The notes beneath the pieces were generated by a model. It was not told where the DNA came from, made no database searches, and saw nothing but the letters and a program-made list of their open reading frames with translations. From Candidatus Kerfeldbacteria bacterium (GTDB taxonomy: Bacteria > Patescibacteriota > Patescibacteriia > UBA9570 > XYC2-FULL-38-9), in contig JBDRKW010000020.1 in assembly GCA_043813585.1 (NCBI GenBank), positions 129,185 to 193,184 of the forward strand: DNA of 64,000 bases. Direction: 5' to 3'. The translations under genes and the position numbers were made by a program. Each line of letters begins with the position of its first letter. Position 1 is the stretch's first letter. Shown here in pieces: positions 4,796-51,063 of the stretch.

Positions 4796-5340
4796 TGCGA
4801 AACTATCTCATTGAACTATGGTGGGTAATTGCGCTAGTACTTCTCGCCGTCATACAAATATCGTTCATTTCAAGCTCGATCCTGCTGCATTACGGAATGC
4901 AAGCTGTGCTTGTTGCTGCAATTATGGTTGCAGCGTATGAACGACCTATGCGGGCACTTTTTATAGCGTCCATTGCCGCGTATATCATGGATCTCAATTC
5001 GGCGTTGCCGTTTGGTATTGTCTTAATTGCCACTGTCGGCGGAGTCGTGCTGTTCCTCTTTTTGAGGCAGAATGTCTTTAAAAATCGTGCACTGCACTCG
5101 CTTGTCATAGGAATGTGTGCGGCGACAATTGCATACCATCTTCTGTTTTTCATGGGGGTCATTTTCTCGCAGTGGTCCGGCACGGTGGAACTATCTGCAT
5201 TTCAATCCCTGGAGTACATCCGTTTTGCGGGCATACAAACGCTTTCACATGCCGTTATCGGCATTATTCTTTATTATGCGATTCAGGTGAGCATCAGGCT
5301 TACTCCGGCAGTGGCTAACCGCAGAAAATATGTCGCGTAA
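4795..5340 (+). CDS. mreD: Rod shape-determining protein MreD (polytopic membrane protein)
   Basis: 181 aa, entirely hydrophobic with 5-6 TM helices. Start overlaps the mreC stop. Called from its position between mreC and PBP2. Confidence 0.55.
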   Translation: MRNYLIELWWVIALVLLAVIQISFISSSILLHYGMQAVLVAAIMVAAYERPMRALFIASIAAYIMDLNSALPFGIVLIATVGGVVLFLFLRQNVFKNRALHSLVIGMCAATIAYHLLFFMGVIFSQWSGTVELSAFQSLEYIRFAGIQTLSHAVIGIILYYAIQVSIRLTPAVANRRKYVA

Positions 5341-7803: not shown

Positions 7804-9288
7804 ATGACGTTGCCAGAAAGCGAAAGCGAACTCCGAAAGAAGAAAGTCGGGGCGCTTCGCAAAAAAGGAATAAATCCCTATCCATCCAAGGCTGAACACA
7901 GCAGTAGTGTTGGTCTTTTTATTGACATGTTCGGTGACCATGAAAAGAAAGGCGATACGGTCATACTCAGCGGACGAGTCATGCTCATGAGAGCGCACGG
8001 AAAAATCACATTTGCGCATGTGGCCGACGAGACAGGGAAAATTCAGGTTGTTTTTGCCAAACAGGATATGGGCGACGATGCATATGCATTTGTTGCCGAG
8101 TATATCGATGTAGGTGATATAGTGCAGGTAAGCGGGACGGCGTTTGTCACAAAAAAAGGTGAGCAGTCGCTTCTTGTACAGCAGGCGACACTTCTCTCAA
8201 AAGCAATCAACCCACTGCCTGATAAATGGCATGGAATCAAAGACGAAGAGGCGCGATACCGAAAGCGCTATCTGGATATGCTGATGAATCCGGAACTTCG
8301 GGATATGGTTCGCAAAAAAAGCATGTTTTGGAACGCTGTTCGGGATTTTTTACAGAATGAAGGATTTCTTGAGGTTGAAACCCCTGTCCTGGAGGCTGTT
8401 GCCGGAGGTGCTGATGCCCAACCGTTTGTTACACATCATAATGCATTGGATATCGATCTATTTTTGCGCATCTCGATGGGCGAACTGTGGCAAAAACGGT
8501 TAATGGTAGCCGGATTTGATAAAACATTTGAGATCGGAAGGCAATTCCGCAATGAAGGGATCAGTCCTGAGCATCTGCAGGATTACACGCAAATGGAATT
8601 TTATTGGGGCTACGCTGATTATGAAATGGGAATGGAACTGGTTGAGCGCATGTATAAGGAATGCATCAATAAAACATTCGGTACGCTGAAGTTTTCAATC
8701 AAAGGTATGGACGTCGACTTGTCCAAAAAATGGGACCGCATTGATTACGTTGACGCGTTAAAAAAAGCATACAAACTTGACGTGTTGCAGGCGACGGAAA
8801 ATGAACTGCGGACTGCATGCAACAACGCCGGTTCAAGTGCTGACGGCGTCGTGGGCAAAGGAAGGCTCATGGATCTTTTATGGAAGCAGGTAAGAAAAAC
8901 AATCACCGGACCCGCGTTCCTGGTCAACCACCCGGTTGAAGTGTCGCCGCTTGCCAAACGAAAAGAAGACAATCCGGCATTGGTTGAACGATTTCAGGTC
9001 ATTATCGCCGGCAGTGAGCAGGGAAACGGGTATTCAGAGCTGAACGATCCCATCGATCAGCGTCAGCGTTTCGAAGAGCAGACAGAATTGAGGGAAGCCG
9101 GGGATACGGAAGCGCAAATGCATGATGAAGATTTTGTGGAGGCGCTGGAATACGGCATGCCGCCGACATGCGGATTTGGTATGAGCGAGCGGCTGTTTTC
9201 ATTCCTCATGGATAAGCCGATTCGGGAATGCGTAACATTTCCTCTCTTACGGCCAAAACAAGACGATAACAAAGACAATAATGCTTGA
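7804..9288 (+). CDS. lysS: Lysyl-tRNA synthetase (class II)
   Basis: Start chosen at MTLPESE because the ORF otherwise overlaps greA. OB anticodon-binding domain plus a class II core (RNEGIS..HNPEFT-like, GGADAQPFVTHHNALD, FEIGRQFRNEG). Confidence 0.9.
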   Translation: MTLPESESELRKKKVGALRKKGINPYPSKAEHSSSVGLFIDMFGDHEKKGDTVILSGRVMLMRAHGKITFAHVADETGKIQVVFAKQDMGDDAYAFVAEYIDVGDIVQVSGTAFVTKKGEQSLLVQQATLLSKAINPLPDKWHGIKDEEARYRKRYLDMLMNPELRDMVRKKSMFWNAVRDFLQNEGFLEVETPVLEAVAGGADAQPFVTHHNALDIDLFLRISMGELWQKRLMVAGFDKTFEIGRQFRNEGISPEHLQDYTQMEFYWGYADYEMGMELVERMYKECINKTFGTLKFSIKGMDVDLSKKWDRIDYVDALKKAYKLDVLQATENELRTACNNAGSSADGVVGKGRLMDLLWKQVRKTITGPAFLVNHPVEVSPLAKRKEDNPALVERFQVIIAGSEQGNGYSELNDPIDQRQRFEEQTELREAGDTEAQMHDEDFVEALEYGMPPTCGFGMSERLFSFLMDKPIRECVTFPLLRPKQDDNKDNNA

Positions 9289-10567
9289 TATTAAATATAT
9301 TCGCGACCATGCGGAAGATGTGAAGCTGAATGCAACGCATCGCAACATTGATGTTGATATTTCTCTCCTGCTGGAACTCGATGAGCAGCTGCGCAGCCAT
9401 GTACAGCAGGTAGAGCAGCTGCGTGAGGAACGAAATACGAACGCAGAAGCGCTGAAAGGAAGCGAAGATAAAGAATCAAAGGTAGCAAAGGAGCATATTC
9501 AGCGCGGCAAGGAACTGAAAAAGGAAATTGCTGCCAGTGAAGCCGAAATCGAAAAACTTCGCGCAGAATTGCAGCCGCTGCTGGAAGCTGTTCCCAACCT
9601 GACGCATCCGGGCGTGCCTGTCGGCAAAGATGATGCTGATAATAAAGAACTCAAACAGATCGGCGCAATCCCGGAATTTGATTTCGAGATCAAGGACCAT
9701 GTCGAATTAGGCAAATCGCTCGATATCCTTGATTTTGACCGCGGTTCGGAAGTCGCCGGTTCTGGCTTTTACTTTGTGAAGAACGAAGCGGCAGTCATGG
9801 ACCTTGCACTCCAGCAATTTGCGTTCGACCGCTGCCGCGCCAACGGATTCACTCCGATGATCACGCCGGACATTGCATACCAAGAAATCCTGCGCGGTAC
9901 AGGCTTCAATCCAAGGGGGGATGAAAAGCAGATCTATAATATTGAAGGGACGGATTTATCCCTTATTGCAACATCAGAAATCACCGTTGCCGGCTATTTC
10001 AAAGACCGCATCTTCAAGAAGGGCGAACTGGATGCGCCGATAAAAATCGTCGGCCTCTCGCACTGTTTCAGGACAGAGGCGGGTGCGTACGGCCGTGAAT
10101 CACGCGGATTATATCGCGTCCACCAATTCACAAAAGTGGAGATGTTCATTATTTGCAAACCGGAAGATTCGGAAGCGCAGCATGAACATCTGCTGGAGAT
10201 GGAAGAAGAAATATTGCAGGAACTGAAAATCCCGTATCGCGTTGTTGACTGCTGCACCGGCGACCTGGGCGGGCCGGCGTTCAGAAAATACGACATTGAA
10301 GCATGGATGCCGTTCAAGGATTCCTGGGGTGAGGTTACCTCAACATCAAATTGTACGGACTACCAGGCGCGCAGGCTGAACATCAAATATGAAGCAGGTT
10401 CCGGAAAGAAGGAATACGTACACACACTTAACGGAACAGCCGTAGCGCTATCGCGCGTTCCAATTGCAATCATAGAAAACTTCCAACAAAAAGACGGGAC
10501 AGTCGCTATTCCGGATGCACTCCAACCGTATACGTTCGGCGTGACGGCAATTGAATTGAAGAGCTAG
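9281..10567 (+). CDS. serS: Seryl-tRNA synthetase
   Basis: MLDIKYIRDH start, N-terminal coiled-coil arm, class II motifs (GFYFVKNEAA, HCFRTEAG, GTAVALSR). Confidence 0.9.
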   Translation: MLDIKYIRDHAEDVKLNATHRNIDVDISLLLELDEQLRSHVQQVEQLREERNTNAEALKGSEDKESKVAKEHIQRGKELKKEIAASEAEIEKLRAELQPLLEAVPNLTHPGVPVGKDDADNKELKQIGAIPEFDFEIKDHVELGKSLDILDFDRGSEVAGSGFYFVKNEAAVMDLALQQFAFDRCRANGFTPMITPDIAYQEILRGTGFNPRGDEKQIYNIEGTDLSLIATSEITVAGYFKDRIFKKGELDAPIKIVGLSHCFRTEAGAYGRESRGLYRVHQFTKVEMFIICKPEDSEAQHEHLLEMEEEILQELKIPYRVVDCCTGDLGGPAFRKYDIEAWMPFKDSWGEVTSTSNCTDYQARRLNIKYEAGSGKKEYVHTLNGTAVALSRVPIAIIENFQQKDGTVAIPDALQPYTFGVTAIELKS

Positions 10568-11607
10568 TATCCGCGCTTGATGCGCCGTGCAGTTTCAATC
10601 ACTTTTGTCATTGTATATTTCCACGAAAGGGGATAGTCCTGGCAGTGGAGCAGGTCAAGCTGGCTTCCGCCAAATCCCATTTTGAATTTAGAAAGTCCTA
10701 TCCACGGATGCTTCCGCTTGAGGAAAGTGGATACCTGTTTTGATTCGGGAACGATGCCCCAAAAATTATACTGCGTACACCCTCGCTCTTTCGCTTCCTT
10801 GATTGCTTCCCATTGAATCAGGTATGAGGCGGGAATGCGGTTATATTCGGATAACGAAGCTCCATGATGATAGGAAGCCATATCGCCGTAATACATCATT
10901 ATGGCCGCAGAAATGGGCTTATTTTCGTATTCACCGATAAATACCTCCACTTGACCGTCTGTGGCAAATGCACGCACCTGAGCGCGAAAATAGTCGTCTG
11001 TGTAGGGCACAAATCCATGGCGCTGAACTGTTTCCTGGTGAATATCGATAAATGCCTGGACAGATTCGTCACTGGTACTTTTCTTTATCACCACACCGTC
11101 CTTGCTTGCGCGACGAACAAGATTGCGCATGGTTTTTCGCATGCCTTTCATCAGTTCATCTTCGGTGCCCGATATGTCCATCCACCAGATATTTTCCGCA
11201 AGCATGTGAATGGGCGCGTCTTTCCACCCAATGGAATGATAGAGTTCCTTGTTCTCGGGTGAGTTCATGATAAACGGCGATGAGCGTAGAAAATCTGCGT
11301 TCAGTTTCTTACCAAAATCTTTCACGTACGTCGTGAATTCGTTCAGATGCTTCCATTCGTCGCGCCTAAACACAGGGCCATAGGGCATAAACAGATAGGT
11401 GCCCCGCTTAGCTTTCACGAGCGTTGCGAATGCAACTCCGATGAGATCGTCACCCTTAAGGATCTCAAAAAGATATGGGTCCTCACCAACTTTCTCGTGA
11501 AGCTGCTTCATGTTCCATGACTGCAGAAAAGGCGGCCGAGAGACGCTCATTAGGAACTGTTCCCAGCGTTCCTTCGATTCTGATTCTCGAATGATAATGT
11601 CGGACAT
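10564..11607 (-). CDS. FemAB-family aminoacyl-tRNA-dependent peptidoglycan peptidyltransferase (FemX/MurM-like)
   Basis: 347 aa. Sequence pattern of the FemAB family (PF02388-like GNAT duplication): PPFLQSWNMKQ..., YLFMPYGPV, SYLIQWEAIKEAKERGCTQYNFWG. Its stop codon overlaps the serS stop as CTAG. Confidence 0.75.
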   Translation of the reverse strand: MSDIIIRESESKERWEQFLMSVSRPPFLQSWNMKQLHEKVGEDPYLFEILKGDDLIGVAFATLVKAKRGTYLFMPYGPVFRRDEWKHLNEFTTYVKDFGKKLNADFLRSSPFIMNSPENKELYHSIGWKDAPIHMLAENIWWMDISGTEDELMKGMRKTMRNLVRRASKDGVVIKKSTSDESVQAFIDIHQETVQRHGFVPYTDDYFRAQVRAFATDGQVEVFIGEYENKPISAAIMMYYGDMASYHHGASLSEYNRIPASYLIQWEAIKEAKERGCTQYNFWGIVPESKQVSTFLKRKHPWIGLSKFKMGFGGSQLDLLHCQDYPLSWKYTMTKVIETARRIKRGY

Positions 11608-11609
11608 AC

Positions 11610-12872
11610 CTATTGGTAGAATTCTTTAATAGTTTCAATCACATCGTGAGCGTCCTGCTCAGTCGTCTGTATATTTGTCGGCAGATTTACGACCGTTCTT
11701 GCCGCTGCTTCAGCCACGGAGCAGCTGCCTTTCGCATAATGAACAGCCTCCATGTTCGATCCCGGCGGTGCAATAACCGGGTCATACCAGTCACCCAGCA
11801 ATATGCCGCGTTGCTTCGCAAAGGCAACAAGTTCATTGCGCCGTTTTACTTGGATTGTATAGCGCAGCAATGCTGATTTGGCATTCGGCTGAAATACTGG
11901 CAACTGAATGCCTGGGGCGTCATTAAGTTTGCTCGCATAGAGGTCAGCCAGCCGCTGCCTATGTTCCTGCATTTCCTCAAGGACACTCATCTGTGCCACT
12001 GCCGCAGCTGCCATTGCATTTGGCAGGCGGTAGCCCTTTTGCTGCTTCGCTTCCTTTTTTTCTGCTGCAAATAAAACAAGCGGGAATAAACGAATTTTTT
12101 TTGAAACAGCAATAATAATCTTCCCAAGCGAACCGACGTAATAAAAGCGGATTCCCAGAGCAAAGAGCAGGGGATGCAGCAGCCGCTGTTTAATCCAAAT
12201 ATGCGACGGAAACCGCAAACCGAGCCAGTAGTTATTCAGATGCTGCGCGATCTCAGCATCATTTGTAATTGCCATCCCGCCGGACACCGCTGAAATCACC
12301 TTATCGCGTCCGAATGAAAACATCGCGGCCTGGCCAAATGTACCGACGAGCATGCCGTTAACAGTCGCTCCAAGAGAATGTGCGCAATCCTCAATAAGAG
12401 TAACGCCGTGTGAAGTGCAAATCTCCTGAATGCGCTCTATCTGCGCCGGCTGTCCAAACGTATGCTGCACGATGACAGCGCGTATCTTCTTCGACTGGTC
12501 AAGCTTCTTTTCCAAATCAACCGGATCAAGGTTGTAGGTATTGTCAATATCCACATACACCGGCTTGCCATTGGCAGCAATGATGGCATTCGGCACTACA
12601 ACACAGGTAAATGACTGCATTGCCACCTCATCACCTTCCTGTAGATCAAGCGCATCGAGTAATGCATACAATGCTATCCGGCCCGAGCTGAATGATCGCG
12701 CAAAAGAGACTGAAAATTTGCGCTTGAACAAATCATCAAGTTCAGATAGCGCTCGGCCTTTGCGCCACATAAACCAGCGATACGGGTTGATAAGCCAATA
12801 CAATGCGCGTTTCACGTCCTGAGGGCGCGCGTTAGGTGATAAATGAGGCGATATTGGTCGTTTTGCTGGCAT
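11610..12872 (-). CDS. DegT/DnrJ/EryC1/StrS-family PLP-dependent sugar aminotransferase with hydrophobic insertion
   Basis: GDEVAMQSFTCVVVPNAI, DIDNTYNLD, HTFGQP, SFGRDKVIS (PLP lysine) and SGGMAITND are typical of DegT. An approximately 60-aa hydrophobic insert (FPSHIWIKQRLLHPLLFALGIRFYYVGSLGKIIIAVSKKIRLFPLVLFAA) replaces the usual short linker. Confidence 0.75.
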   Translation of the reverse strand: MPAKRPISPHLSPNARPQDVKRALYWLINPYRWFMWRKGRALSELDDLFKRKFSVSFARSFSSGRIALYALLDALDLQEGDEVAMQSFTCVVVPNAIIAANGKPVYVDIDNTYNLDPVDLEKKLDQSKKIRAVIVQHTFGQPAQIERIQEICTSHGVTLIEDCAHSLGATVNGMLVGTFGQAAMFSFGRDKVISAVSGGMAITNDAEIAQHLNNYWLGLRFPSHIWIKQRLLHPLLFALGIRFYYVGSLGKIIIAVSKKIRLFPLVLFAAEKKEAKQQKGYRLPNAMAAAAVAQMSVLEEMQEHRQRLADLYASKLNDAPGIQLPVFQPNAKSALLRYTIQVKRRNELVAFAKQRGILLGDWYDPVIAPPGSNMEAVHYAKGSCSVAEAAARTVVNLPTNIQTTEQDAHDVIETIKEFYQ

Positions 12873-12876
12873 GATA

Positions 12877-14508
12877 TTATTTTTCAGTGCCGGTCAGGTA
12901 GGAAAAGATCGCATCCTGGACACGTCCCTCAATAAGCACGACATCATCTGAGGTAAAATTTGATAACACGCTACTGATCAATTTTTTTGGCCTGTCGTTC
13001 ACGATAATGTTGCCTGCCTGCATGCCGCCCTGCTTTGCAGCATCGCGAAGCGGTTTTGCAAAATCCTTCTTCGTGATAATGAGCTGGTCCACGGTCTTGG
13101 CAAGATAGGTACCGACATTTCGATGGTGCTTGTCCGTTTCAACGCCAAGCTCCTGCATTCCCGGGGTGATGACTATTTTTTTCTTGTCCTCGAACTGGGT
13201 AAGATAGTCTACAGCCGCCATAAACCCATCCGGATTCGAATTGTAATGGTCGTCGATCACGTAGAAGTGGTTTCGACCGTTCAATAAGTGCATTGTCCCT
13301 TCTACAGGCTTCAGTTTTTTAATGCCCTCAGCAATATCCTCAATAGACATGCCCAGGTGATCTGCAGCAGTTGCCGCAGCCAGAATAGAGGAGATAACCT
13401 GCTCGCCATGGAGTGATGTTCGCACAACAGCAGAACGCTTTCCTATGTGAAGCATAAATTGAACTGCGTGGGGCTCAACTTCAATATCTGTCGCATAGGT
13501 ATGCGCCACATCCTGAGTAGAAAACAATTTTAGTTTCGCCTCTGTTTGTTTTGATGCCTCAACGCATGAAGAAATATCTTTATTTACAACTGCAAGGCCT
13601 GTTTTCGGCAGCGACGCAAGTAGCTCCGCTTTTGTATTGCGGATGGCCTCCAGGCTGCCGAACAACGCAAGATGCTGCTCATTGATTGCCGTTAAAATTC
13701 CGATAATCGGTGACGTCAGGTCGCAAATTGCATCAATTTCACCCGGGCGATACGCCCCCATCTCGACAATAAATACTTCATGTTCATCCGTCAGCGAACT
13801 AAGTATGGTCTGCGCCACGCCAATATCAACATTGACATTCTTGGGCGTTGAAATGGTTTTAAACCGTTGATCAAGGATGGTTTGCAGAAATTGCTTGGTT
13901 GATGTTTTTCCGTAACTACCTGTAATACCGATGACTGTCGGGCTCAGCGATGCGAGCTTTTCCTTTGCACTTCGAATAATGCGCTGTTTCTGAACGGAGG
14001 CCAGCGGCTGGAAAAGCAGGACAATAAACGTTGCCGTCAAAGGAATGAGCAAAACCGCAATAATCATCGATAAAAAAGATCCGGTGTAAATACCAATGAC
14101 ATACGCGATTATAATGGAAATAAGCGGTGAGAGAATCGACAGCAACATAGCCTTCGACGTCCATGTAGGAAATACCCGCCAGCGAAGGTAGCGCACCAGC
14201 TCCAGCAGTAAAAACGCAAAAAATAAATAAACAAGCGTGTTGAACAGCAACGAGTTTGCGATATCGATGTACACACTATCCCAGTAGGCAACCAGCCAAA
14301 TGATTAAAAATGCAATTTCAATAAACGTCCAGACATTGAGAGTCGCACGTTTTCCGGAACGGGTTGTCAAAAAATCAACCATGCGATCGGTGCGATACTC
14401 CTTGAGTTGCCAGATATAAATCCAATAAACATTTTTCAGGCCAATGAGCAGCAGGAAGATCAGGATTTGAATCGTTAAAATGAATATTGTCAGAAATTCA
14501 CCATCCAT
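12877..14508 (-). CDS. Membrane-anchored Mur-ligase family protein (MurF-like central and C-terminal domains; N-terminal domain replaced by about 5 TM helices)
   Basis: Residues 1 to about 175 are polytopic membrane. Then come a Mur ligase P-loop (IGITGSYGKTSTK), a central domain, and a MurF-like C-terminal domain (IDDHYNSNPDGFMAAVDYL, ITPGMQELG). Confidence 0.75.
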   Translation of the reverse strand: MDGEFLTIFILTIQILIFLLLIGLKNVYWIYIWQLKEYRTDRMVDFLTTRSGKRATLNVWTFIEIAFLIIWLVAYWDSVYIDIANSLLFNTLVYLFFAFLLLELVRYLRWRVFPTWTSKAMLLSILSPLISIIIAYVIGIYTGSFLSMIIAVLLIPLTATFIVLLFQPLASVQKQRIIRSAKEKLASLSPTVIGITGSYGKTSTKQFLQTILDQRFKTISTPKNVNVDIGVAQTILSSLTDEHEVFIVEMGAYRPGEIDAICDLTSPIIGILTAINEQHLALFGSLEAIRNTKAELLASLPKTGLAVVNKDISSCVEASKQTEAKLKLFSTQDVAHTYATDIEVEPHAVQFMLHIGKRSAVVRTSLHGEQVISSILAAATAADHLGMSIEDIAEGIKKLKPVEGTMHLLNGRNHFYVIDDHYNSNPDGFMAAVDYLTQFEDKKKIVITPGMQELGVETDKHHRNVGTYLAKTVDQLIITKKDFAKPLRDAAKQGGMQAGNIIVNDRPKKLISSVLSNFTSDDVVLIEGRVQDAIFSYLTGTEK

Positions 14509-14509
14509 A

Positions 14510-15322
14510 TTACTTGTTTAAAAAGGGGATTAATGCTTGAGCAATTTGTGCTGCATGCGTCTTATGAATACCGTGGCGTCCATCATTAAATAGCGTCAAC
14601 TGTGCCTGCTTCATGGCGGATTGCATCTGTTCACCGTCTGAAAAGGGTACATAAGTGTCGTCTTTCCCCCAAAAAATATGGATCGGTGCTGTAATCGATG
14701 ATAGACAACCTTTTAGATCCTCATCCACAACTCGAGAAAACGATTCTTTCATCACACCTTCAGCTGCAAGATAATCCTGCGCGCCAATACTTTTATAACC
14801 AAGGGATCGCACAATTGGCAGTAACGGCTTTAACGGAGCAATGCTTAAAATCTTCTTCAGTGTTTTAGCAACAAATCCTATAGTTTCTTTCGACCTTGTT
14901 TCGTGTTTTATTCCGGCAGGTGCGATGAGAGCTGCACGCTGGAATATGTCCGCTTTGCGTGCCAATAATTTAAGTGCAACACGGCCGCCAAACGAGTGGA
15001 TGACTAATTCTGGCCGTGAAATGTGCATATTCGCTAAATATTTTACGACGCATTCTGCATAATCGTCTACACCCCATGCGGAGGGCGGGGGAGCACTCTC
15101 TCCAAAGCCGGGAAAATCGAGGGCATAAAAGGTACTTTTCGATCCGGCATCTCGCAGCGCTTGGAACAACGGCTGGAATGACAGCGCATCTCCACCCCAG
15201 CCATGCAAAAAAAGGACCGGATTTGAACCGTCTCCGTCCTGTATATATGAAATTGTTCCGCTATCAAGCTTTATGCTTTTTCGAATACCAGTCATAACGC
15301 GATTATACATGCATTCAAGCAT
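14510..15322 (-). CDS. Alpha/beta-fold hydrolase
   Basis: HGWGG oxyanion motif, GxSxG nucleophile elbow (HSFGG), 270 aa. Last gene of the cell-envelope operon. Confidence 0.7.
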   Translation of the reverse strand: MLECMYNRVMTGIRKSIKLDSGTISYIQDGDGSNPVLFLHGWGGDALSFQPLFQALRDAGSKSTFYALDFPGFGESAPPPSAWGVDDYAECVVKYLANMHISRPELVIHSFGGRVALKLLARKADIFQRAALIAPAGIKHETRSKETIGFVAKTLKKILSIAPLKPLLPIVRSLGYKSIGAQDYLAAEGVMKESFSRVVDEDLKGCLSSITAPIHIFWGKDDTYVPFSDGEQMQSAMKQAQLTLFNDGRHGIHKTHAAQIAQALIPFLNK

Positions 15323-15398
15323 AAAATCTACCAGAAATCGGATAACATTTCAAGTCTGCTCATTGCGGCAAACGCCTGAATATCATACAATACTGTAG

Positions 15399-19548: not shown

Positions 19549-20295
19549 TTATTCCTTTCTACGCAAGCCTCGAAAAAGCAGAAGTGAAATCGGAAACACA
19601 ACAACGGCATTAACAATTCGGATTATCCGGTTGGGCTGCTGCAGCAGGCGCCATAACCATTCGAGATGAACGGCTTGAATCCATCGTGGCGCGCGCGTTG
19701 CCGTTCCCGACCAGAAATCAAACGTCCCTCCAACTCCAATCCCCACAGCCGAAGGGCCCGCCGAATCCAAATGCTTACCTAGCCAGAGTTCCTGCTCGGG
19801 AAAACCAAGCCCAACCAACAGCAGATCTGCCGATATTCCCGTCGGCGGATCGTTAAGCCATTGATCCTTCATTATGGAATGCGCAGAAACAACCGCATCG
19901 GGCCATCGGGTTTTCATTGCAGCTATAATATCCTGTTCACCTGAAAGTCCATCCTTTCTGATAACGCAATGAACCGACAATTTTTTTGCATGTGCGATAT
20001 CCATAAGATGCCCTGCCACATCAACACCGCGAACGGTATTTGTTATGCGGCTGAACAGCCGAATTCCAAATCCATCCGCAACAGAGAGGTCTGCCTTTGA
20101 AAGAACCGCCGCAAAGTCCGGATGGTTCCGCGCATGCAACAAAATCTCAGGGTTTGGCGTGATAATGAGCTTCATGCAGTCACTGTCCACAATCCATTTA
20201 TTGATCCTATCCATTGCTCCGGGTAACGAAACATTATCAATGGGGATCCCAAAAATACTAATGCGTTTTTCTGTATTCATAGCTGGAACCATCAT
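19549..20295 (-). CDS. WecB/TagA/CpsF-family glycosyltransferase (UDP-ManNAc(A) transferase for lipid-linked cell-wall polymer linkage unit)
   Basis: ISIFGIPIDNVSLPGAMDRI...KLIITPNPEILL and VGLGFPEQELW profile of GT26. Confidence 0.75.
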   Translation of the reverse strand: MMVPAMNTEKRISIFGIPIDNVSLPGAMDRINKWIVDSDCMKLIITPNPEILLHARNHPDFAAVLSKADLSVADGFGIRLFSRITNTVRGVDVAGHLMDIAHAKKLSVHCVIRKDGLSGEQDIIAAMKTRWPDAVVSAHSIMKDQWLNDPPTGISADLLLVGLGFPEQELWLGKHLDSAGPSAVGIGVGGTFDFWSGTATRAPRWIQAVHLEWLWRLLQQPNRIIRIVNAVVVFPISLLLFRGLRRKE

Positions 20296-28282: not shown

Positions 28283-29446
28283 CTACGACTTCCTATTCTT
28301 AATGATAGCCAACGTAACGAATGAAAGGATGGCTGCGAGGATTGCAATCGCGCCAATCAAGCCGATGCCTGTAAACAGACTGCCGATATAGTCGCTGAAT
28401 AGCGGTGTTATTAGTTCAATAAATTCTTCAGAAATATCCGCTCCTCCGAGCAACAATTCAAACCTCGCGAGTGCCAGTAACCACAATAGAATTCCACATA
28501 ATGCAGTCAGGATTCCGGAAGATAACAATCCAATCCCGAGCCACAGCATTGCAGCTTGAAGCGACCTGCGATGCAGAATTGCCAGAAGCCCCAAACATAA
28601 TCCGCAAATAATAATCAATAGAAGTGTTACAATCCTAAAAATAGTAAGGCCCAGTTGAATATTGTCTATATTCGTTTCATAACGCTTGATTTTTTCATAT
28701 TCTTCATCGGACAACGGACCAGCAAGAGCCTGAAGTGAATTTTCCTCGGCAATCACGGCAACATGCAATTCATCCTGCAATACCAATTTCAAGAGATTTA
28801 TGGTATCAGGAAATTGATCAACAATGAATTTGGGCGTTATCGGTAAATCGCCCTCTAAAATATAAAACTGACTCGCGGGCCCCAGAACATCCTCAGGCCA
28901 ACAGCCCAGAGTGCGAAAATCAAGCGCATAGTCGCCTTGCGTATCAAGTTCTTCGTACATATGGATAAGATCTTCTATCCCCTCATCAACGCAGGGCGGC
29001 AGCTCTCCAACATCAAAAGAATATTCATCAAGAAGGACCTGAACGTATTTCGTAAAGCGCTCCTTCGGCTCTGCCACGTTTATGACCAAATCAACGTCGC
29101 GCAACGTCATTTCCTTGTTTTGCAATGAAAAAATCTCACTGACGAGGCGTTCAAATTCAGGCCGCAGCCAATCCGGATGAAATGTAAACGCAAGCAGCGC
29201 TGTGACCTCGTTATGGTCTAAAAATGAAAACGGTGAATGTTGTACAGCCTCTTCCGGAATGGCCTGCGCAATCAAAAGCGGTACCGCCTTTGAGTAGGCA
29301 TTGTTATTCTGTAGCGTTTGAAGCAACGGCCCGGGATCCAGTACATACGTCTCTAAACGTACACATATGGCCGCAAGAGGCAAGCATATTGCGAGCACGG
29401 CCACTATAATGATGCTGGCGACACGGTTCATATTATTCAATTTCAA
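28283..29446 (-). CDS. Hypothetical membrane protein (N-terminal TM, large extracytoplasmic domain, C-terminal 3-4 TM)
   Basis: Hydrophobicity pattern only; no recognisable family. Confidence 0.45.
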   Translation of the reverse strand: MKLNNMNRVASIIIVAVLAICLPLAAICVRLETYVLDPGPLLQTLQNNNAYSKAVPLLIAQAIPEEAVQHSPFSFLDHNEVTALLAFTFHPDWLRPEFERLVSEIFSLQNKEMTLRDVDLVINVAEPKERFTKYVQVLLDEYSFDVGELPPCVDEGIEDLIHMYEELDTQGDYALDFRTLGCWPEDVLGPASQFYILEGDLPITPKFIVDQFPDTINLLKLVLQDELHVAVIAEENSLQALAGPLSDEEYEKIKRYETNIDNIQLGLTIFRIVTLLLIIICGLCLGLLAILHRRSLQAAMLWLGIGLLSSGILTALCGILLWLLALARFELLLGGADISEEFIELITPLFSDYIGSLFTGIGLIGAIAILAAILSFVTLAIIKNRKS

Positions 29447-30596
29447 CTGGTATGTAATCCGGTACGAACGCTATCCAAATATTCCCTCGCAAAAGAGGAA
29501 TTTCACGGCCATTATGGTCAAAAAAACGCGTACGATCTTGCCGCGTTTCCTTCTTCCACGTCCCAGTATAAAGCCGGCCATCGTGAAATATCTCTACTAT
29601 GCCTTCCCCGGTAACAGGCCAATTAATCCTGCCCTTCCCCTCGATCGATATGCCCTCGCCAACATGCTGGATGACAATATTGCTCACATGAATAGGACCT
29701 CCCGTATTGGCGTCAGTATGCGCCACCCCTGCGTTGCTCCGCAGATAACTGTTTGCTTCCCGATCGTACCGGTACTCCACGTTATAAGACCCCCCAAATG
29801 CGATTGAAATGCCGGTCATTGCCTTTCCTCCGGCTTGCGCATCTATCTCGTCAAGCGGATCCTGAAACTTCCAAGGGTAATATTGCGGCTGTTCTTCATT
29901 TGCCCACCGATGATCAACATTCGCCCGTGTTAAGTCCTCTGTTGACGTGAATAGATTATGGGGCGCCTCTTTTGATGAATCCCGCCAAAAATAAGTTGAT
30001 TCCCGCAACGCATCGATATCGCGCAGACCAAAACGCTGCAACGCCAGCATTGCCGTATAACTGCCTCCTGCGTGCGAATACGCGCACTCAAGCTCGCTGA
30101 CAAATTCCAGATACGTGTCGCGCGCCGATCGAACCGGGCCTACTGCCACGTTTGCCCCATCTGCATACACAGCCATAAACCGCGTTATACCGCCCTCAAC
30201 AATCACTTCATAAACCACAGATGCCGCTTGGAGGCCCGACTGCGGCCGCACGCCTCCGAATGCGGCGTTTTCAATCATGACACACGACAATACTGGGTTT
30301 GATAGTTCCGCAGGAACGACGACACCGTCAATGCGGCGGGGTAATTCATCTTGAACAATTTCTTCCTTTACCCGCTGGATAACCGTCGGCATATCATATA
30401 TTGCCGATTTTAGCAGTTCGCGTGCATCAAAAAAAGATTGATTTGTCACTGCTACGGCAACAAGCGTATAGCCGCCGAATGATATCAGTCCGAGTCCCAA
30501 AAAAGCACTTATCTTCGAAAGCGGTGAATGGTACTTCTTCATAAAGTCTTGACTGTGCAGGCCTGTGCTTTTCTCCGTTTTTTTCTTGCCGCTCAT
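29433..30596 (-). CDS. DUF3048-like (YerB-like) membrane-anchored or secreted protein, paralogue 1
   Basis: Signal-anchor. Conserved block RPQSGLQAASVVYEVIVEGGITRFMAVYADGANVAVGPVRSARDTYLEF...HAGGS is shared with the downstream paralogue and recalled as DUF3048. Confidence 0.55.
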   Translation of the reverse strand: MSGKKKTEKSTGLHSQDFMKKYHSPLSKISAFLGLGLISFGGYTLVAVAVTNQSFFDARELLKSAIYDMPTVIQRVKEEIVQDELPRRIDGVVVPAELSNPVLSCVMIENAAFGGVRPQSGLQAASVVYEVIVEGGITRFMAVYADGANVAVGPVRSARDTYLEFVSELECAYSHAGGSYTAMLALQRFGLRDIDALRESTYFWRDSSKEAPHNLFTSTEDLTRANVDHRWANEEQPQYYPWKFQDPLDEIDAQAGGKAMTGISIAFGGSYNVEYRYDREANSYLRSNAGVAHTDANTGGPIHVSNIVIQHVGEGISIEGKGRINWPVTGEGIVEIFHDGRLYTGTWKKETRQDRTRFFDHNGREIPLLRGNIWIAFVPDYIPVEIE

Positions 30597-30599
30597 GGG

Positions 30600-31730
30600 C
30601 TAATTATACTCTACCGAACGATCATCGGGAAGTATCTCTATCCATGTATTTCCGGGCGTAAACGTCATCTCCTCTCCGCTATCCGTAATAAAACGGGTTC
30701 TTTGAGAGTGATATTCCTTTATCCATCGACCCTGAATCCGTTCACCATTTTTGAATAAATCAATAGCTCCTTCACCGATTGTTTCCATATCCAGACGACC
30801 GGTTGATTCTTCCATGAGTGTTGTCGGCACGTACTGTATAAGAACATTGGTCACATGAATTTGCTGGCCGGTTGCCGTATCGTTATGAGGTTCGTTCCCG
30901 TTAAACCGCAGGTATTGATTCGCATCCCTATCATATGCATACCGAACCTCATAACTCTGGGTAGAAAATGGGATAACAATATCAGGAGCATTCAACGGCC
31001 TGTCATTCAATACTATGGCTGATTCAAATAACCATGGGTTAAAGGTGCCCTCTCCTTCTTCCAGTTCAAAATCCCGGAGCATGTATCCGATCATTTCGGA
31101 CGACGTGAATAAATTGTGCGGTGCCGCTATTGATTCATCACGCCAAAAATACGCATGATCCCCACCGACCTGATTGACATTGTCCAGAAGATACGAGTTG
31201 TCGATTAACTGGCCAAGCGCCTGCGGACTGCCGCCCGCATGCATATAAACCCCACGGTACTCCTCTGCCCAATCAACAAAATAGTGACGCGCTGACCGCA
31301 CCGGACCGATAACGGTAAGATTTTCGTTTGTTGCATACAGTGCCATAAATCTGGTTATTCCGCCTTCCGCCAGCGCTTCATACACAACACTGGCACTCTG
31401 CAACCCCGTTTGCGGACGCACGGTGACAAGATTCTCAATCATGATCGCTATCGGCAGGACATTTTCATAGCCTCTTGGTGTCGGCACGCCGTCAATACGC
31501 CTCGTTAAAACATCCTCGTCCGTATCATTGCCGCTCAGATCGATATTTACGGTATCGCCGGATCCGTTTGCCTCGCTTGAATGGGATCTGTTGACGATAT
31601 AGATAGAGACAACAACAATAACAACCAACAACCCAATTGCGGCAACTACCAGCCAAACCTGGGCTTTCTTGCTTTCTTTAATTGCCCAAAGGCTATCTTT
31701 AATCCTAATGGACAGTGGCGGCTTCCCCAT
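30600..31730 (-). CDS. DUF3048-like protein, paralogue 2 (possibly with Lys/Arg-rich N-terminal extension to 31883)
   Basis: RPQTGLQSASVVYEALAEGGITRFMALYATNENLTVIGPVRSARHYFVDW...HAGGS. The longest ORF would start at 31883 with a K/R-rich tract, but that overlaps rplY by 143 nt, so the start at MGKPPLS is preferred. Confidence 0.55.
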   Translation of the reverse strand: MGKPPLSIRIKDSLWAIKESKKAQVWLVVAAIGLLVVIVVVSIYIVNRSHSSEANGSGDTVNIDLSGNDTDEDVLTRRIDGVPTPRGYENVLPIAIMIENLVTVRPQTGLQSASVVYEALAEGGITRFMALYATNENLTVIGPVRSARHYFVDWAEEYRGVYMHAGGSPQALGQLIDNSYLLDNVNQVGGDHAYFWRDESIAAPHNLFTSSEMIGYMLRDFELEEGEGTFNPWLFESAIVLNDRPLNAPDIVIPFSTQSYEVRYAYDRDANQYLRFNGNEPHNDTATGQQIHVTNVLIQYVPTTLMEESTGRLDMETIGEGAIDLFKNGERIQGRWIKEYHSQRTRFITDSGEEMTFTPGNTWIEILPDDRSVEYN

Positions 31731-31740
31731 GCTCCTCCTC

Positions 31741-32466
31741 TTATTCTTTCTTAGCGTCTTTCTCGCCTTCTCCTTCTTTCTTCTCTTCCCCTGCTTCAGT
31801 TTCTTCCGTCTCACCTTCCTCATCGGTTTCTTTCTTTCCTTCAACTTCAACATCAGAGATATCTTCAACAACATCTTCTTCAAGCGCTTTCAATTCCTCC
31901 TCGCTTCTCGGCTCAGCAACGGAAACAACGGTTGAGTCCGGCGCCTGCAGGTATTCAACTCCCTCCAATACAGGAAGATCGCGAACGCGGATATCATCAT
32001 CAAATGTCGCAAGAGACGTAAGGTCAACGACAATATGATGCGGCAAATCTTTCGGCAAACACTTCACCTCTAGCTCTGAAATCGTTTTTACGATGATGCC
32101 ACCGAGTTCCTTTTCAGCCGGCGCAATGCCTTCAAATAGTATCTCAACTTCAGCAGTCAGTTCCTCATCCATATTGACGATATAAAAATCAATATGCCTA
32201 TACGAATGCTCAACAGGATGTCGTTGAAGATCATGAACCAAGACCTTCACAGAATCCGAATCATCTATAACTAAATCAATAAGCGTACTTTCCCCTGCCT
32301 GGTCCAGTACCCTTTCAAAATCCAACGCATTAACGGATAACGGCGTTGTCACTTTATCTTTGCCGTAGACAATTGCCGGGATCATTCCGCCTTCCCTCAC
32401 TTTTCCCGCTCCAGCTCGTCCCTTATCTTCCCGCGTAACTGCTTTTAGTGTAATTGCTTCGCTCAT
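31741..32466 (-). CDS. rplY: Ribosomal protein L25/general stress protein Ctc with acidic E/K-rich C-terminal tail
   Basis: MSEAITLKAVTREDKGRAGAGKVREGGMIPAIVYGKDK... L25 profile, C-terminal beta-barrel domain, and a tail of about 50 aa rich in E, K and G. Confidence 0.8.
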   Translation of the reverse strand: MSEAITLKAVTREDKGRAGAGKVREGGMIPAIVYGKDKVTTPLSVNALDFERVLDQAGESTLIDLVIDDSDSVKVLVHDLQRHPVEHSYRHIDFYIVNMDEELTAEVEILFEGIAPAEKELGGIIVKTISELEVKCLPKDLPHHIVVDLTSLATFDDDIRVRDLPVLEGVEYLQAPDSTVVSVAEPRSEEELKALEEDVVEDISDVEVEGKKETDEEGETEETEAGEEKKEGEGEKDAKKE

Positions 32467-32857: not shown

Positions 32858-33967
32858 TCAATTCCTGGATACTAGCCCCATTCGATGGACGATTCCAAAC
32901 GCCAACAGCGTTATTACCATAGACGTTCCGCCGGCGCTCACAAGCGGCAATGGCACCCCTGTCACCGGCAATAAACCCATATTCATCCCGAGAACCAAGA
33001 AACTTTGGGACAGAAAATAGACAAAAACGCCAAAGCAAAACAGAAAAACATACATATCCTTTGTGCGTGACATATAAACCCACAGACGAAACAGTATCAT
33101 TCCTATCGAGCCGAGGATTCCCAATACGCTTATAAACCCGAGCTCCTCCGCAATAGCCGCAAATATGAAGTCAGATGTGACTTCAGGGAGAAAATGCAGC
33201 TGACTTTGCGTTCCCAGCCCCAAACCTCTGCCCCAAAAAGACCCTGACCCGATGGCAACAATCGATTGCGTAATATTATAGCCTGTACCCATTGGATCCG
33301 CCTCCGGATTGATAAATGTTGACAGCCTGTCTTTTTGATAATCCTCAAAAAGGAAAAACCATCCGACAAGAAATATTCCAACGGCCATTACTGCCACAGC
33401 GACAAGACCCAATTTTGGCGCGCGGAGCAGGATGGCAAATGAAAACCATAATACAAATAGTATCAGCGCAGACCCAAGGTCAGGCTGCAATACCACCAAT
33501 CCGACAAGGACAGAAGCGGAAATGCCGCTGATGATAAAATACCGGTAGGTACTCATCTGCTCGGGACTTCGTTCAAAATACGCCGCGATAAAAAGGATAA
33601 AAAGAATTTTTGCTATCTCGACCGGTTGAAGCGAATATCCCGCTAAAACAAACCAGCCGGTGGTGCCTTTAATGGTAACGCCAAAAATAAGCACGCCAAC
33701 CAGTAATGCGGATGCAAAAAGGAAATAGATAGCAGCATGTCCCTTGATGGTTCTATGGTCAATAAAAGAAAAAATAACAAACGCGGCCACGCCGATGGCA
33801 ACATACGTCAACTGGTCAAAAAACGGCGACAATGTAGATATTTCCAGGTTCGTACCGATGCTGTACTGCATCACCAGGCCGATGCAAATCAAAAAAAGAA
33901 TTGGCGCTATAATCCACCAATCAACAAATCCAAATCGTTCAGATATTCGAGGCAGCCGTAGCTTCAT
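32858..33967 (-). CDS. SEDS-family peptidoglycan glycosyltransferase (RodA/FtsW)
   Basis: 10-TM FtsW/RodA/SpoVE profile (GxxLGLG, PEVTSDFIFAAIAEELG, LPVTGVPLPLVSAGGTS). Confidence 0.8.
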   Translation of the reverse strand: MKLRLPRISERFGFVDWWIIAPILFLICIGLVMQYSIGTNLEISTLSPFFDQLTYVAIGVAAFVIFSFIDHRTIKGHAAIYFLFASALLVGVLIFGVTIKGTTGWFVLAGYSLQPVEIAKILFILFIAAYFERSPEQMSTYRYFIISGISASVLVGLVVLQPDLGSALILFVLWFSFAILLRAPKLGLVAVAVMAVGIFLVGWFFLFEDYQKDRLSTFINPEADPMGTGYNITQSIVAIGSGSFWGRGLGLGTQSQLHFLPEVTSDFIFAAIAEELGFISVLGILGSIGMILFRLWVYMSRTKDMYVFLFCFGVFVYFLSQSFLVLGMNMGLLPVTGVPLPLVSAGGTSMVITLLAFGIVHRMGLVSRN

Positions 33968-44303: not shown

Positions 44304-45062
44304 CTATTCTTCTTCCGAATACTCTTCCCATGCAGCATGCCGGTACTGTTCTGCCGCTTTCACCGGATCATCTGCCTTATATATGCCCCGACCGACGATA
44401 ATCACGTCAGTACCTGACTGCATCGCTTCTCGTGGCGTTTGATATTGCTGGCCGAGCGCATCTCCTGTCGCTTCAAGATTGACGCCAGGCGTAAACACGA
44501 GCATTCCCTTGGGAACATCTGCACTTCCCTTGCCCACGAACCCGATAACGAATTCATCATGCGCGGCAGCCCATTTATAAGCTGTCTTTGTATACTTCCC
44601 TGTTGCTAGCGAGCCTTTTGAACTCATTTCCGCTAGCAACAGCAATCCCCGGCCTTTCGGCAGCCCTACCTCCTTTAATCCCTCGATAACCCCCTCTCCA
44701 GGGATAATATGTGCGTTGGTTATGTCAGCCCAGTCCGAAATATGGTAGATACCCTTCTCATACTGCAATTTAACCGTATTGCCGATGTCGGCAAATTTCC
44801 GGTCCTCAAAAATCAGAAAGTTGTGTTCATGGGCCAGTTTTAACAGATCACTAACCACATCATCGCTGAAATCTTCCATCGTATCGATGTGCGTCTTAAG
44901 AACGCATATTTGCGGACCCAGCGCATCTGCCAGAGCCAAAAACTCCTTAGACCTTGTTACATCCAGTGATAAGCACAAGTTGCTCCGTTTTGAATGGATG
45001 ACCTGTACCAATTTCTTCGCTACCGGATTTTTTACTTCTCCCAGTTTTGAGATTATTCCCAT
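44304..45062 (-). CDS. pyrF: Orotidine-5-prime-phosphate decarboxylase, eukaryote (URA3)-like type
   Basis: NLCLSLDV, KTHID, EDRKFADIGNTVKLQY, DWADITNAH, GSLATGKYTK, DFVIGFVG, GDALGQQY and IIVGRG blocks. Confidence 0.85.
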   Translation of the reverse strand: MGIISKLGEVKNPVAKKLVQVIHSKRSNLCLSLDVTRSKEFLALADALGPQICVLKTHIDTMEDFSDDVVSDLLKLAHEHNFLIFEDRKFADIGNTVKLQYEKGIYHISDWADITNAHIIPGEGVIEGLKEVGLPKGRGLLLLAEMSSKGSLATGKYTKTAYKWAAAHDEFVIGFVGKGSADVPKGMLVFTPGVNLEATGDALGQQYQTPREAMQSGTDVIIVGRGIYKADDPVKAAEQYRHAAWEEYSEEE

Positions 45063-45081
45063 GTATGTTTATTGAATTTTA

Positions 45082-46041
45082 TCAACGCATATTTATCGCG
45101 GAACGTGGCTCTTTATTGCTCTCCGGGCACATTTCTTGGAATCGCTCGATCTCTAATGTGATCATCCCTGCAATTTCCTTGGACAGCTCAGATATTTCAA
45201 GGGCGGCAATCATATCTTCCTTTGTCAACCCCATCTGCTCAACAATATAGCCAAAATCATATCGGTCATAATAAGAATTCATGGAAGCTGCGGCCCATTC
45301 GCCGGATGTTGCGACGGGAAATGTTTCATTTATTTCCTTGATGTAAGCTGCATATGCAGCTGACGCGAGCAATTCACTTTCATTAGCTTTTTTAATATAC
45401 CGGTCAGTTGTACGCCGAATTTCATCCATCTGCCGGACTAAAGTATGGTCGATAATCCAACCCATGACAGACGAAATAAGATATGGATAATCATTCTCCT
45501 TAAGCGCAACATCAAAGCGCTCATAGGCATCGCAAGAATCCATGCCTGTTGCCTCTACGCACTGGACCATCTCATCTGAATGGTTGGGATGCTGCACATG
45601 TGCAGCTTCATGCATAAGATCATCCGGCGCTAACGCGTCAATATCTCCGACTAAAATATGATCATCCTCAACTGTCTTCGTACCGAATGTTACGAGTCTT
45701 GCTGCTGCGTTTTCTTCATCCCCAAAATCAAATACATAGACATTATCATGTTGAATAATTATTTCGAGGTCAGCTAGCGTCTGTTGCAAGTCAGCTATAA
45801 GTTCGTCATTATTGTCAATTGGCTCTCCCCTCCCGCTAAACAGCGGCTGCGCGCGCTTCATTAATTCTACAAAAGGAACGAATTCTATCTTCGCTATGCG
45901 AAGTATTTCTAGAATGCGTTCTTTGTTCGCCTGATCTAAGGGGGCACAACCGCTTAAGGTTGGCATTGCACCCGCAGCAGTAGCGCCCAGGCACTGCAAC
46001 AACCTCCGCCGCGTCATCCCTTCTTGCGGCAGATTACTCAT
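45082..46041 (-). CDS. Hypothetical Tat-signal lipoprotein-like protein with HExxH motif
   Basis: RRRLLQCLGATAAGAMPTLSGC (twin-arginine plus lipobox-like Cys) and HEAAH. Start chosen at MSNLPQ to avoid overlapping pyrE. Confidence 0.45.
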   Translation of the reverse strand: MSNLPQEGMTRRRLLQCLGATAAGAMPTLSGCAPLDQANKERILEILRIAKIEFVPFVELMKRAQPLFSGRGEPIDNNDELIADLQQTLADLEIIIQHDNVYVFDFGDEENAAARLVTFGTKTVEDDHILVGDIDALAPDDLMHEAAHVQHPNHSDEMVQCVEATGMDSCDAYERFDVALKENDYPYLISSVMGWIIDHTLVRQMDEIRRTTDRYIKKANESELLASAAYAAYIKEINETFPVATSGEWAAASMNSYYDRYDFGYIVEQMGLTKEDMIAALEISELSKEIAGMITLEIERFQEMCPESNKEPRSAINMR

Positions 46042-46675
46042 ATCCCATCGCGCTTCCCCATGCTTGCGGATCTTTATTCCACGCAAGGATCTTTTCTTGT
46101 TCGTCCTTCTTGATATAGCCGTTTGCCGAAGCGACATCCACGAGCGTCGAAAAATTCGTCAATGTATGCAGCTGTATATCCGCTTCGGAAAAAGCAGCTC
46201 GCGCCTTTTGCATCTCATAGGTAAAGATAGCGATACAATCGATTACTACGCCGCCTTCTTCGCGCACTGCAAGGCCGGCATCAACCGAACTGCCTCCCGT
46301 GCTGATAAGATCTTCCACAATGAGCACGGTCTGGCCTTTCTTTATAACGCCTTCGATGCGGTTTTTCTTTCCGTGGCCTTTTTCCTTCCCGCGGATATAG
46401 ATCATGGGTTTCTTCAAACGATCTGCGATCCATGCCGCATGCGGTATGCCGGCAGTTGCCGTTCCTCCCACAACATCAAATTCCAAATTCTGCTCACGTA
46501 TCAAATCAAGAAATGCCTGTATAACAACTTCGCGCTTGTCGGGGTAAGAGATGACGAGCCGGTTATCACAATAGATCGGGCTGAGAATGCCTGACGTATA
46601 CCGAAACGGTTCCTCCGTGTTTAATGCCACTGCCTTGATGTCCAGCAGTAATTTTGCGATTTCTTCTGAAGCCAT
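46034..46675 (-). CDS. pyrE: Orotate phosphoribosyltransferase
   Basis: PRPP-binding loop VLIVEDLISTGGSS; FDVVGGTATAGIPHAAW. Confidence 0.85.
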   Translation of the reverse strand: MASEEIAKLLLDIKAVALNTEEPFRYTSGILSPIYCDNRLVISYPDKREVVIQAFLDLIREQNLEFDVVGGTATAGIPHAAWIADRLKKPMIYIRGKEKGHGKKNRIEGVIKKGQTVLIVEDLISTGGSSVDAGLAVREEGGVVIDCIAIFTYEMQKARAAFSEADIQLHTLTNFSTLVDVASANGYIKKDEQEKILAWNKDPQAWGSAMGYE

Positions 46676-46677
46676 AA

Positions 46678-48421: not shown

Positions 48422-48473
48422 GCTGTTTTGCCCAATATGGGCTTAGTATACCAGACTTTGCCCCTATAATCGA

Positions 48474-49418: not shown

Positions 49419-49427
49419 ATGCGTATA

Positions 49428-51058: not shown

Positions 51059-51063
51059 AGTGG

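Follow-up and report, generated by a model that had tools for sequence, protein, structure and literature searches.

MurC to MurF are textbook soluble enzymes of the cytoplasm and serve as antibiotic targets. In ddl-murF operons of the B. subtilis type and in the division and cell wall (dcw) cluster, murF is tied to ddl or to murE and mraY, and ftsQ and ftsA reside nearby. Mur-ligase folds without the UDP-binding N-terminal domain are known as well. One is MurT of the MurT/GatD lipid II amidotransferase (6fqb, 6gs2), which acts on a membrane-bound substrate, lipid II, with a partner enzyme encoded next door. Others are MurE (403 aa) and MurF (426 aa) of Southlakia epibionticum (SEML1_0049, SEML1_0599), which begin at Mur_ligase_M and possess neither the N-terminal UDP-binding domain nor transmembrane (TM) helices (PMC10633639 supplement); N-domain-less Mur ligases may be general in the Candidate Phyla Radiation (CPR). 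Here, we analyze a stretch of 64,000 nt from the genome of a Candidatus Kerfeldbacteria bacterium (CPR/Patescibacteria), in the following called the window, and focus on a cassette of four genes for an alpha/beta hydrolase (ABH), a MurF-type ligase with an N-terminal membrane domain (TM-MurF), a DegT-family enzyme and a FemX-like transferase. Judged from sequence and gene context, the cassette is probably the CPR variant of a gene block for peptidoglycan precursors that is conserved in the dcw neighbourhood and in which TM-MurF would perform the ordinary MurF reaction. In window coordinates, its features are:

15325 to 15353, minus strand: promoter-like site, TTGAAA-17-TAGATT with TG (consensus match only)
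14510 to 15322, minus strand: alpha/beta-fold serine hydrolase, 270 aa, no TM segment (Pfam Abhydrolase_1, 2.8e-21, and Abhydrolase_6)
13975 to 14508, minus strand: N-terminal membrane domain of TM-MurF, residues 1-178 (hydrophobicity, AlphaFold)
14383 to 14418, minus strand: motif 1 of the membrane domain, YIWQLKEYRTDR, residues 31-42, in the cytoplasm-facing loop after TM1 (alignment)
14152 to 14169, minus strand: motif 2 of the membrane domain, PTWTSK, residues 114-119, in the cytoplasm-facing TM3-TM4 loop (alignment)
12877 to 13974, minus strand: MurF-type ATP-dependent ligase body of TM-MurF, residues 179-543 (Mur-ligase motifs)
11610 to 12872, minus strand: DegT/DnrJ/EryC1/StrS-family pyridoxal 5'-phosphate (PLP) enzyme, 420 aa (Pfam PF01041, 5.4e-66)
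12075 to 12233, minus strand: 53-residue helical insert of DegT, residues 214-266, between the PLP and C-terminal domains
10564 to 11607, minus strand: FemX-type (FemABX family) aminoacyl-tRNA-dependent transferase, 347 aa (Pfam FemAB, 4.9e-37)

The four open reading frames (ORFs) follow each other in the order ABH, TM-MurF, DegT, FemX with gaps of 1, 4 and 2 nt. An earlier note on this DNA had described four minus-strand genes spaced by 1-4 nt and had assigned their enzyme classes, and both the ORF coordinates and the Pfam matches (Abhydrolase_1, Mur_ligase_M/C, DegT_DnrJ_EryC1 and FemAB) agree with it. The sole well-placed promoter-like site (15353-15325) is situated just 5' of the hydrolase gene, the first of the set, inside the 76-nt divergent spacer between this gene and an ftsQ-like gene, and terminator-like matches do not exceed the shuffled expectation, which together fits a single transcript. 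Neither a tRNA nor an Rfam element was detected in the 64-kb window.

TM-MurF is encoded by one ORF (12877-14508, minus strand) of 543 residues. Pfam recognizes Mur_ligase_M (PF08245, 2e-34) and Mur_ligase_C (PF02875, 3.8e-15) in it, and matched no N-terminal Mur domain. The central ATPase domain contains the P-loop GITGSYGKTSTK (residues 194-205), the glutamate of the EMGA motif in EMGAY (249-253), the histidine of the NxxxxHL motif in NEQHL (276-280) and the KxE lysine in TKAE (292-295), all of which align to A. baumannii MurF; the C-terminal domain carries the DDxYNANP-type motif DDHYNSNP (419-426), aligning to DDTYNANP. Among the NCBIfam models murF TIGR01143 fits best, with 260 bits over model positions 63-405 of 418 and a match beginning at TM-MurF residue 179, while the models for MurE, MurD and MurC score only 70-100 bits. 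MurF structures from the PDB align to residues ~176-527, with the best match covering 190-486, and their alignments start at TM-MurF residue 176-192 (chain residue 68-122). Both by sequence and by fold, the protein is nearest to MurF. It shares the ATPase and C-terminal domains and all motifs with canonical MurF (E. coli 1gg4, A. baumannii 4qdi, T. maritima 3zl8), occupies the same dcw slot and has ddl as its neighbour outside the CPR. In contrast to the canonical enzyme, domain 1 (~80-100 residues) is replaced by a five-helix membrane domain of ~180 residues with invariant motifs of its own, and a gene for an alpha/beta hydrolase precedes the ligase gene. In the absence of the UDP-binding N-domain, TM-MurF resembles MurT.

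Five hydrophobic helices are found within residues 1-165. AlphaFold places them at ~2-35, 59-80, 87-110, 118-142 and 144-165, followed by a linker helix (167-188) into the ligase; the model, based on a 37-sequence alignment, has a mean predicted local distance difference test score (pLDDT) of 93.4 and a predicted template modelling score (pTM) of 0.88. Successive loops of the membrane domain contain 0/6/0/4/0/5 lysine plus arginine residues, which points to an N-out/C-in topology with a cytoplasmic ligase domain. In motif 1 residues W33, Q34, Y38 and R42 (WQLKEYRxDR) and in motif 2 residues P114, T117 and K119 are invariant in alignment A1. Non-CPR TM-MurFs feature four to five N-terminal TM helices, a P-loop at residue ~175-240 and the motif variants hHhhQLExYK and KKPLVxTxRAKR, such that Q34, Y38 and T117 are common to both groups and position 119 is lysine in the CPR and arginine elsewhere. 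The invariance of cytoplasm-facing residues suggests that the membrane domain exceeds the needs of a passive anchor. Its family comprises 1068 protein clusters and was found only N-terminal to MurF. The description of the protein as a membrane-embedded MurF-like ligase, put forward in the earlier note, is thus borne out by five predicted TM helices in one conserved ORF.

Exact-protein look-ups retrieved four homologues at 36-49% identity with the same ABH-TM-MurF-DegT-FemAB order and different flanks. A scan of one genome per GTDB species yielded at least 587 TM-MurF relatives, the best 80 loci of which were analyzed by phmmer with the window proteins and a Poribacteria dcw set as queries. Two classes became apparent among these loci, a CPR type (n=41) and a Ddl type (n=34). 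The former stems from Staskawicz-, Nealson-, Yanofsky-, Wildermuth-, Magasanik- and Peribacteria, Paceibacterota and others. DegT follows TM-MurF in 37 and FemAB is present in 40 of these 41 loci, while the hydrolase gene lies directly upstream of the ligase gene in 35, the exceptions being mostly contig ends or loci with an extra FemAB gene. With protein identities of 30-60%, some 40 independent CPR loci keep this order, which is linkage far beyond chance, and a conserved, co-transcribed cell-envelope module, as the earlier note had proposed, is supported. The Ddl type occurs in Clostridia, including the cultured Sedimentibacter acidaminivorans DSM 24004 and Sporosalibacterium faouarense, in Peptococcaceae and Poribacteria, in Bacteroidales/Alloprevotella, Bryobacteraceae and Solirubrobacteraceae. 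Here, the hydrolase gene is found upstream in 31 of 34 loci and ddl is adjacent in every one (34/34), whereas DegT and FemAB are never present (0/34). The pair of hydrolase and TM-MurF thereby spans CPR, Clostridia, Poribacteria, Bacteroidota, Acidobacteriota and Actinomycetota. It forms the core of the block in at least six phyla, and degT and femX are CPR-specific additions.

Some of the clusters allow the position of TM-murF to be read directly. In Poribacteria, the Pfam-confirmed order is rsmH-(ftsL)-ftsI-murE-ABH-TMmurF-ddl-mraY-...-murD-ftsW-murG. A Microgenomates contig features TMmurF-degT-femAB-dgkA-mraY-murD-ftsW-murG, and a Gracilibacteria contig ABH-TMmurF-degT-femAB. In several CPR loci, murD-ftsW-murG are located upstream at a distance of a few kb, and the next gene downstream is ftsQ-like. 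The window itself shows only ftsQ-like, M23 and MreBCD/PBP2 genes near the cassette. Compared with the B. subtilis-type arrangement, the ties of murF to ddl or murE/mraY and the proximity of ftsQ/ftsA are retained, while a hydrolase gene is inserted before murF and, in the CPR, degT and femX take the position of ddl.

Some loci deviate in detail. A second, divergent FemAB-like gene sits between the hydrolase gene and TM-murF in loci L011 (7008-7988), L025 (1-939) and L037 (7006-7992), and a 68-aa DUF5652 ORF lies between murF and degT in L004 (9641-9847). In the Microgenomates dcw locus L087, the gene between femAB and mraY (4969-5337) encodes a DgkA-type kinase, and just after murG (10188-11717) follows a gene for a 509-aa protein in which a GT2 glycosyltransferase and an alpha/beta hydrolase are fused. 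L026, L033, L041 and many of L009-L037 carry the CPR-type cassette under the titles 'uncultured Gammaproteobacteria' or 'uncultured Candidatus Saccharibacteria'. As a true Saccharibacterium, Southlakia, does not contain the TM-MurF cassette, these record titles look unreliable.

Because TM-murF fills the murF slot in Poribacteria and Microgenomates, no second murF was found within the dcw clusters described above and ddl is adjacent in all Ddl-type loci, we read TM-MurF as most likely these lineages' own MurF and not as part of a side pathway; NCBI likewise names the orthologues in cultured Sedimentibacter MurF. The idea of a module outside the canonical Mur pathway, expressed in the earlier note, does not agree with a ligase that is closest to MurF and holds its slot beside ddl. 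Gene identities, topology, intact catalytic residues, synteny, the size of the family and the murF slot are shown by the analysis, while what each of the four enzymes acts on, and what hydrolase, membrane domain and DegT contribute, is inferred. TM-MurF would add the terminal dipeptide D-Ala-D-Ala to the stem tripeptide in an ATP-dependent reaction sited at the inner face of the membrane. The product could be handed directly to MraY, or the acceptor might already be the lipid-linked tripeptide. In the CPR, the FemX-type transferase would most likely attach to the stem peptide a branch residue taken from aminoacyl-tRNA, and a DegT enzyme with a unique insert would have been added, translationally coupled to FemX.

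Several observations weigh against an ordinary MurF. A defining MurF domain, the N-domain, is missing, and the TIGR01143 score falls below the cut-off of that model (288.6). CPR-type TM-MurFs do not have the arginine of the 'GR/HR' motif at the junction of domains 2 and 3, which is HR in 97-100% of the Ddl-type TM-MurFs and GR in A. baumannii MurF. The pairing of the hydrolase with MurF is not explained by any data presented here. A second, canonical MurF may be encoded elsewhere in these genomes. Finally, ddl adjoins none of the 41 CPR-type cassettes, and the incoming substrate could thus differ in the CPR.

The catalytic residues of the hydrolase are intact. Its triad consists of Ser110 (VIHSFGG), Asp222 (WGKDD) and His250, and the oxyanion motif HGWG is located at residues 40-43. 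Among 79 orthologues from CPR and non-CPR organisms, Ser110 (HSxGG), Asp222 and His250 are kept in 98-100% and HGW in 93-100%, and residues W83, D183-Y184 and W218-G219 are conserved as family-specific positions. Conservation of the triad predicts an active serine hydrolase or acyltransferase. The closest solved structures, PDB 6i8w (deposited as 'Alpha/beta fold hydrolase', presumably P. aeruginosa PlaF) and arylesterases, tell little about the substrate. One may speculate that the enzyme trims or proofreads stem peptides, for example in a cytoplasmic carboxypeptidase-like step that regenerates the tripeptide, or alternatively that it performs an esterase step on a membrane-bound intermediate.

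DegT matches PF01041 in two stretches (223.7 bits) and has the Schiff-base lysine, Lys191 in SFGRDKVIS, and the PLP-binding aspartate, Asp162 in IEDCAHS. Both residues and 34 further positions are invariant in 25 homologues, from which an active PLP enzyme is predicted. None of the characterized equivalogs in NCBIfam fits: the LegC-like model gives 179 bits against a cut-off of 420 and PseC 170 against 423.5, and the insert divides the match into two parts. The closest folds at 22-26% identity are GDP-perosamine synthase, WbpE, QdtB, DesV and ArnB (overall pLDDT of the model 94.7). DegT shares fold-type I, the Schiff-base lysine and the cofactor aspartate with the nucleotide-sugar aminotransferases GDP-perosamine synthase, WbpE, QdtB and ArnB, which are its best structural matches. 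It differs by the 53-residue insert and the N-terminus SPN...PWxW, by SGR in place of SGT and CAH in place of AAQ, by the lack of a partner dehydratase or oxidase and by its peptidoglycan gene context. The top 120 homologues (379-476 aa) carry source names that all refer to the CPR except for one metagenome-assembled genome labelled Thermoplasmatota, and judged by these sequences DegT belongs to a CPR-specific subfamily. Some members of the wider DegT family use non-sugar substrates (e.g. Fic25).

The insert deserves closer attention. QdtB (3frk) aligns only to residues 44-213 and 267-414 of DegT, the insert with its HP and GK motifs is kept in CPR homologues, and in the model it forms helices 224-242 and 249-259 with pLDDT >90. 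The earlier note had ascribed unusual membrane segments to two of the proteins. This is correct for the ligase and its five TM helices, but the insert of DegT is too polar: its mean Eisenberg hydrophobicity is 0.07-0.25 as compared with 0.49-0.81 for the TM helices of MurF, and it contains several lysine and arginine residues. On these grounds we take neither the insert for a membrane segment nor DegT for a membrane protein. By hydrophobicity no bilayer-spanning helix was found in DegT, with a single borderline 19-residue window (Kyte-Doolittle value 1.79). The insert may instead serve as a lid or an interface, or make peripheral contact with the membrane.

The FemX-like transferase exhibits the double-GNAT core of the FemABX family (PF02388, 128 bits against a cut-off of 24; Acetyltransf_6, 1.2e-18) and has no coiled-coil insert. 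Matches in the PDB are FemX from S. aureus (6snr, 2.9e-11) and from W. viridescens (1.9e-10). The alignment with the latter (residues 161-300 with 170-306) ends with K299-H300 opposite K305-H306, and Lys299 is thus the equivalent of Lys305, the catalytic residue of Weissella FemX. The family, the core of ~340 aa and the aligned lysine are shared with FemX from both organisms and with MurM, and by analogy the same chemistry is expected, in which the stem peptide would receive its first branch residue from aminoacyl-tRNA. The cassette protein is only ~20-25% identical to these enzymes, scores far below the cut-offs of the NCBIfam equivalogs, and its gene sits in a dcw-type cluster, coupled to degT. 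In related loci the degT and femAB genes often overlap by 10-30 nt, suggestive of translational coupling. In the window, serS (9281-10567, plus strand) is convergent with the end of the cassette. In 31 of the 41 CPR-type loci, serS is codirectional with the hydrolase gene and immediately precedes it. This neighbourhood may point to Ser-tRNA as the donor for FemX, L-Ser as the branch residue being a guess from it, or may merely be inherited synteny. In the Saccharibacterium Southlakia, two FemAB-family genes are essential according to transposon sequencing (PMC10633639 supplement).

A different reading is suggested by the strict alternation, at one and the same site, of ddl (non-CPR) with degT plus femX (CPR). 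The acceptor of TM-MurF would be a tripeptide already linked to lipid (lipid I/II), and in the CPR DegT and FemX would replace Ddl and build another C-terminal unit, e.g. by aminoacylation from tRNA followed by PLP-dependent modification. We regard such rewired precursor steps as rather unlikely. The mutual exclusion of ddl and degT-femX matches the split between CPR and non-CPR organisms exactly and may be phylogenetic only, and reviews report that all peptidoglycan genes have been identified in CPR genomes, i.e. complete sets (PMC10221324); it is on these two grounds that we give the replacement of Ddl so little weight. A few CPR loci (L019, L031, L034 and L036) have FemAB and no DegT. Southlakia MurE and MurF have no N-domain and yet no TM domain, such that loss of the N-domain alone is no sign of a lipid substrate; Pfam identifiers for Ddl and alanine racemase are absent from the Southlakia annotation table (PMC10633639 supplement). 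At H462 and R529, the CPR enzymes are nearer to canonical MurF than the Ddl-type enzymes are. The domain 2-3 junction motif mentioned above comprises residues 404-405 of TM-MurF (window 13294-13299). The group-specific residues 404-405, 462 and 529 were considered as a clue to a different dipeptide and discarded, since the distance from canonical MurF is not consistently greater in the CPR type.

The earlier note had favoured a separate pathway that decorates a lipid-linked wall-polymer precursor, with DegT supplying an amino-sugar, FemAB and the ligase adding amino acids, and a TagA/WecG transferase (19549-20295) as part of the context. The DegT fold is indeed nearest to nucleotide-sugar aminotransferases, the neighbouring and frequently overlapping degT and femX genes would suit the formation of an amine and its subsequent aminoacylation, and the TagA/WecG gene is found in the window at a distance of 4 kb. 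A similar logic of amine formation followed by aminoacylation is known from some O-antigen clusters, and an amino-sugar made and then aminoacylated on a lipid-linked precursor by DegT and FemX is possible. For the pathway as a whole the odds appear poor. TagA accompanies the cassette only in Kerfeldbacteria (L001/L002) and is for this reason rejected as part of the system, no dehydratase or oxidoreductase that could form a keto-sugar is conserved in the cassette, and DegT has no true membrane segment. Moreover, the ligase resides in the dcw murF slot, beside ddl outside the CPR, and the core of hydrolase and TM-MurF exists in many phyla without DegT or FemAB.

The chance that the TM region is a separate upstream gene fused by frameshift or mis-assembly, with tight packing as a coincidence, is negligible. 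No observation was found to speak for this origin, and it is dismissed. More than 80 independent loci, drawn from different phyla and studies, encode the ligase as one ORF (500-585 aa) in which four to five TM helices precede a P-loop at about residue 180-220, and so do RefSeq genomes of cultured Sedimentibacter. In addition, AlphaFold packs the membrane and ligase parts confidently.

In the literature searched, we found no description of a transmembrane MurF, of a hydrolase-MurF pair or of a degT-femX insertion in the dcw cluster, and databases name TM-MurF proteins simply MurF. The block around a membrane-embedded MurF and its hydrolase partner, with the CPR-specific degT-femX insertion in dcw, is widespread and apparently undescribed. 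An integral-membrane MurF without the nucleotide-binding domain, paired with a hydrolase, suggests an unrecognized coupling of the last cytoplasmic to the first membrane step of wall synthesis and may even mean a different substrate. There is an outside chance that most CPR, many Clostridia, Poribacteria and others finish the stem peptide at the membrane and not in the cytosol, using a five-helix MurF and an obligatory hydrolase, and that in the CPR a PLP enzyme and FemX replace Ddl. If true, this MurF would use a lipid-linked tripeptide as its acceptor or pass its product straight to MraY, and the terminus or branch of the CPR precursor would be built unlike the textbook D-Ala-D-Ala route. 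As TM-MurF is present in cultured, tractable anaerobes (Sedimentibacter), these ideas are directly testable. CPR envelopes are almost unstudied, and degT-femX in dcw predicts a lineage-specific modification of peptidoglycan that is likely essential.

Outside the cassette, the window contains further noteworthy gene arrangements. An apparently complete block for de novo pyrimidine synthesis is encoded on the minus strand (44304-56328) and, according to Pfam, consists of pyrF, a phosphoribosyltransferase gene (pyrE-like), a pyrK-like gene, pyrD, two genes for proteins with aspartate/ornithine carbamoyltransferase fold, a pyrC-like amidohydrolase gene, carB and carA. As a rule, CPR bacteria are regarded as incapable of de novo nucleotide synthesis. 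A 487-aa protein (59190-60653, minus strand) contains an MtrA-like region at its N-terminus together with a thymidylate-synthase fold and PterinBD-DUF4346, an unusual architecture for a thymidylate synthase, and its gene adjoins those for thymidylate kinase and dCMP deaminase. Two tandem DUF3048 paralogues (29433-30596 and 30600-31883, minus strand) adjoin genes for a GT2 glycosyltransferase, an amino-acid permease and RodA/FtsW (32858-33967), and this region may be another envelope-related cluster.

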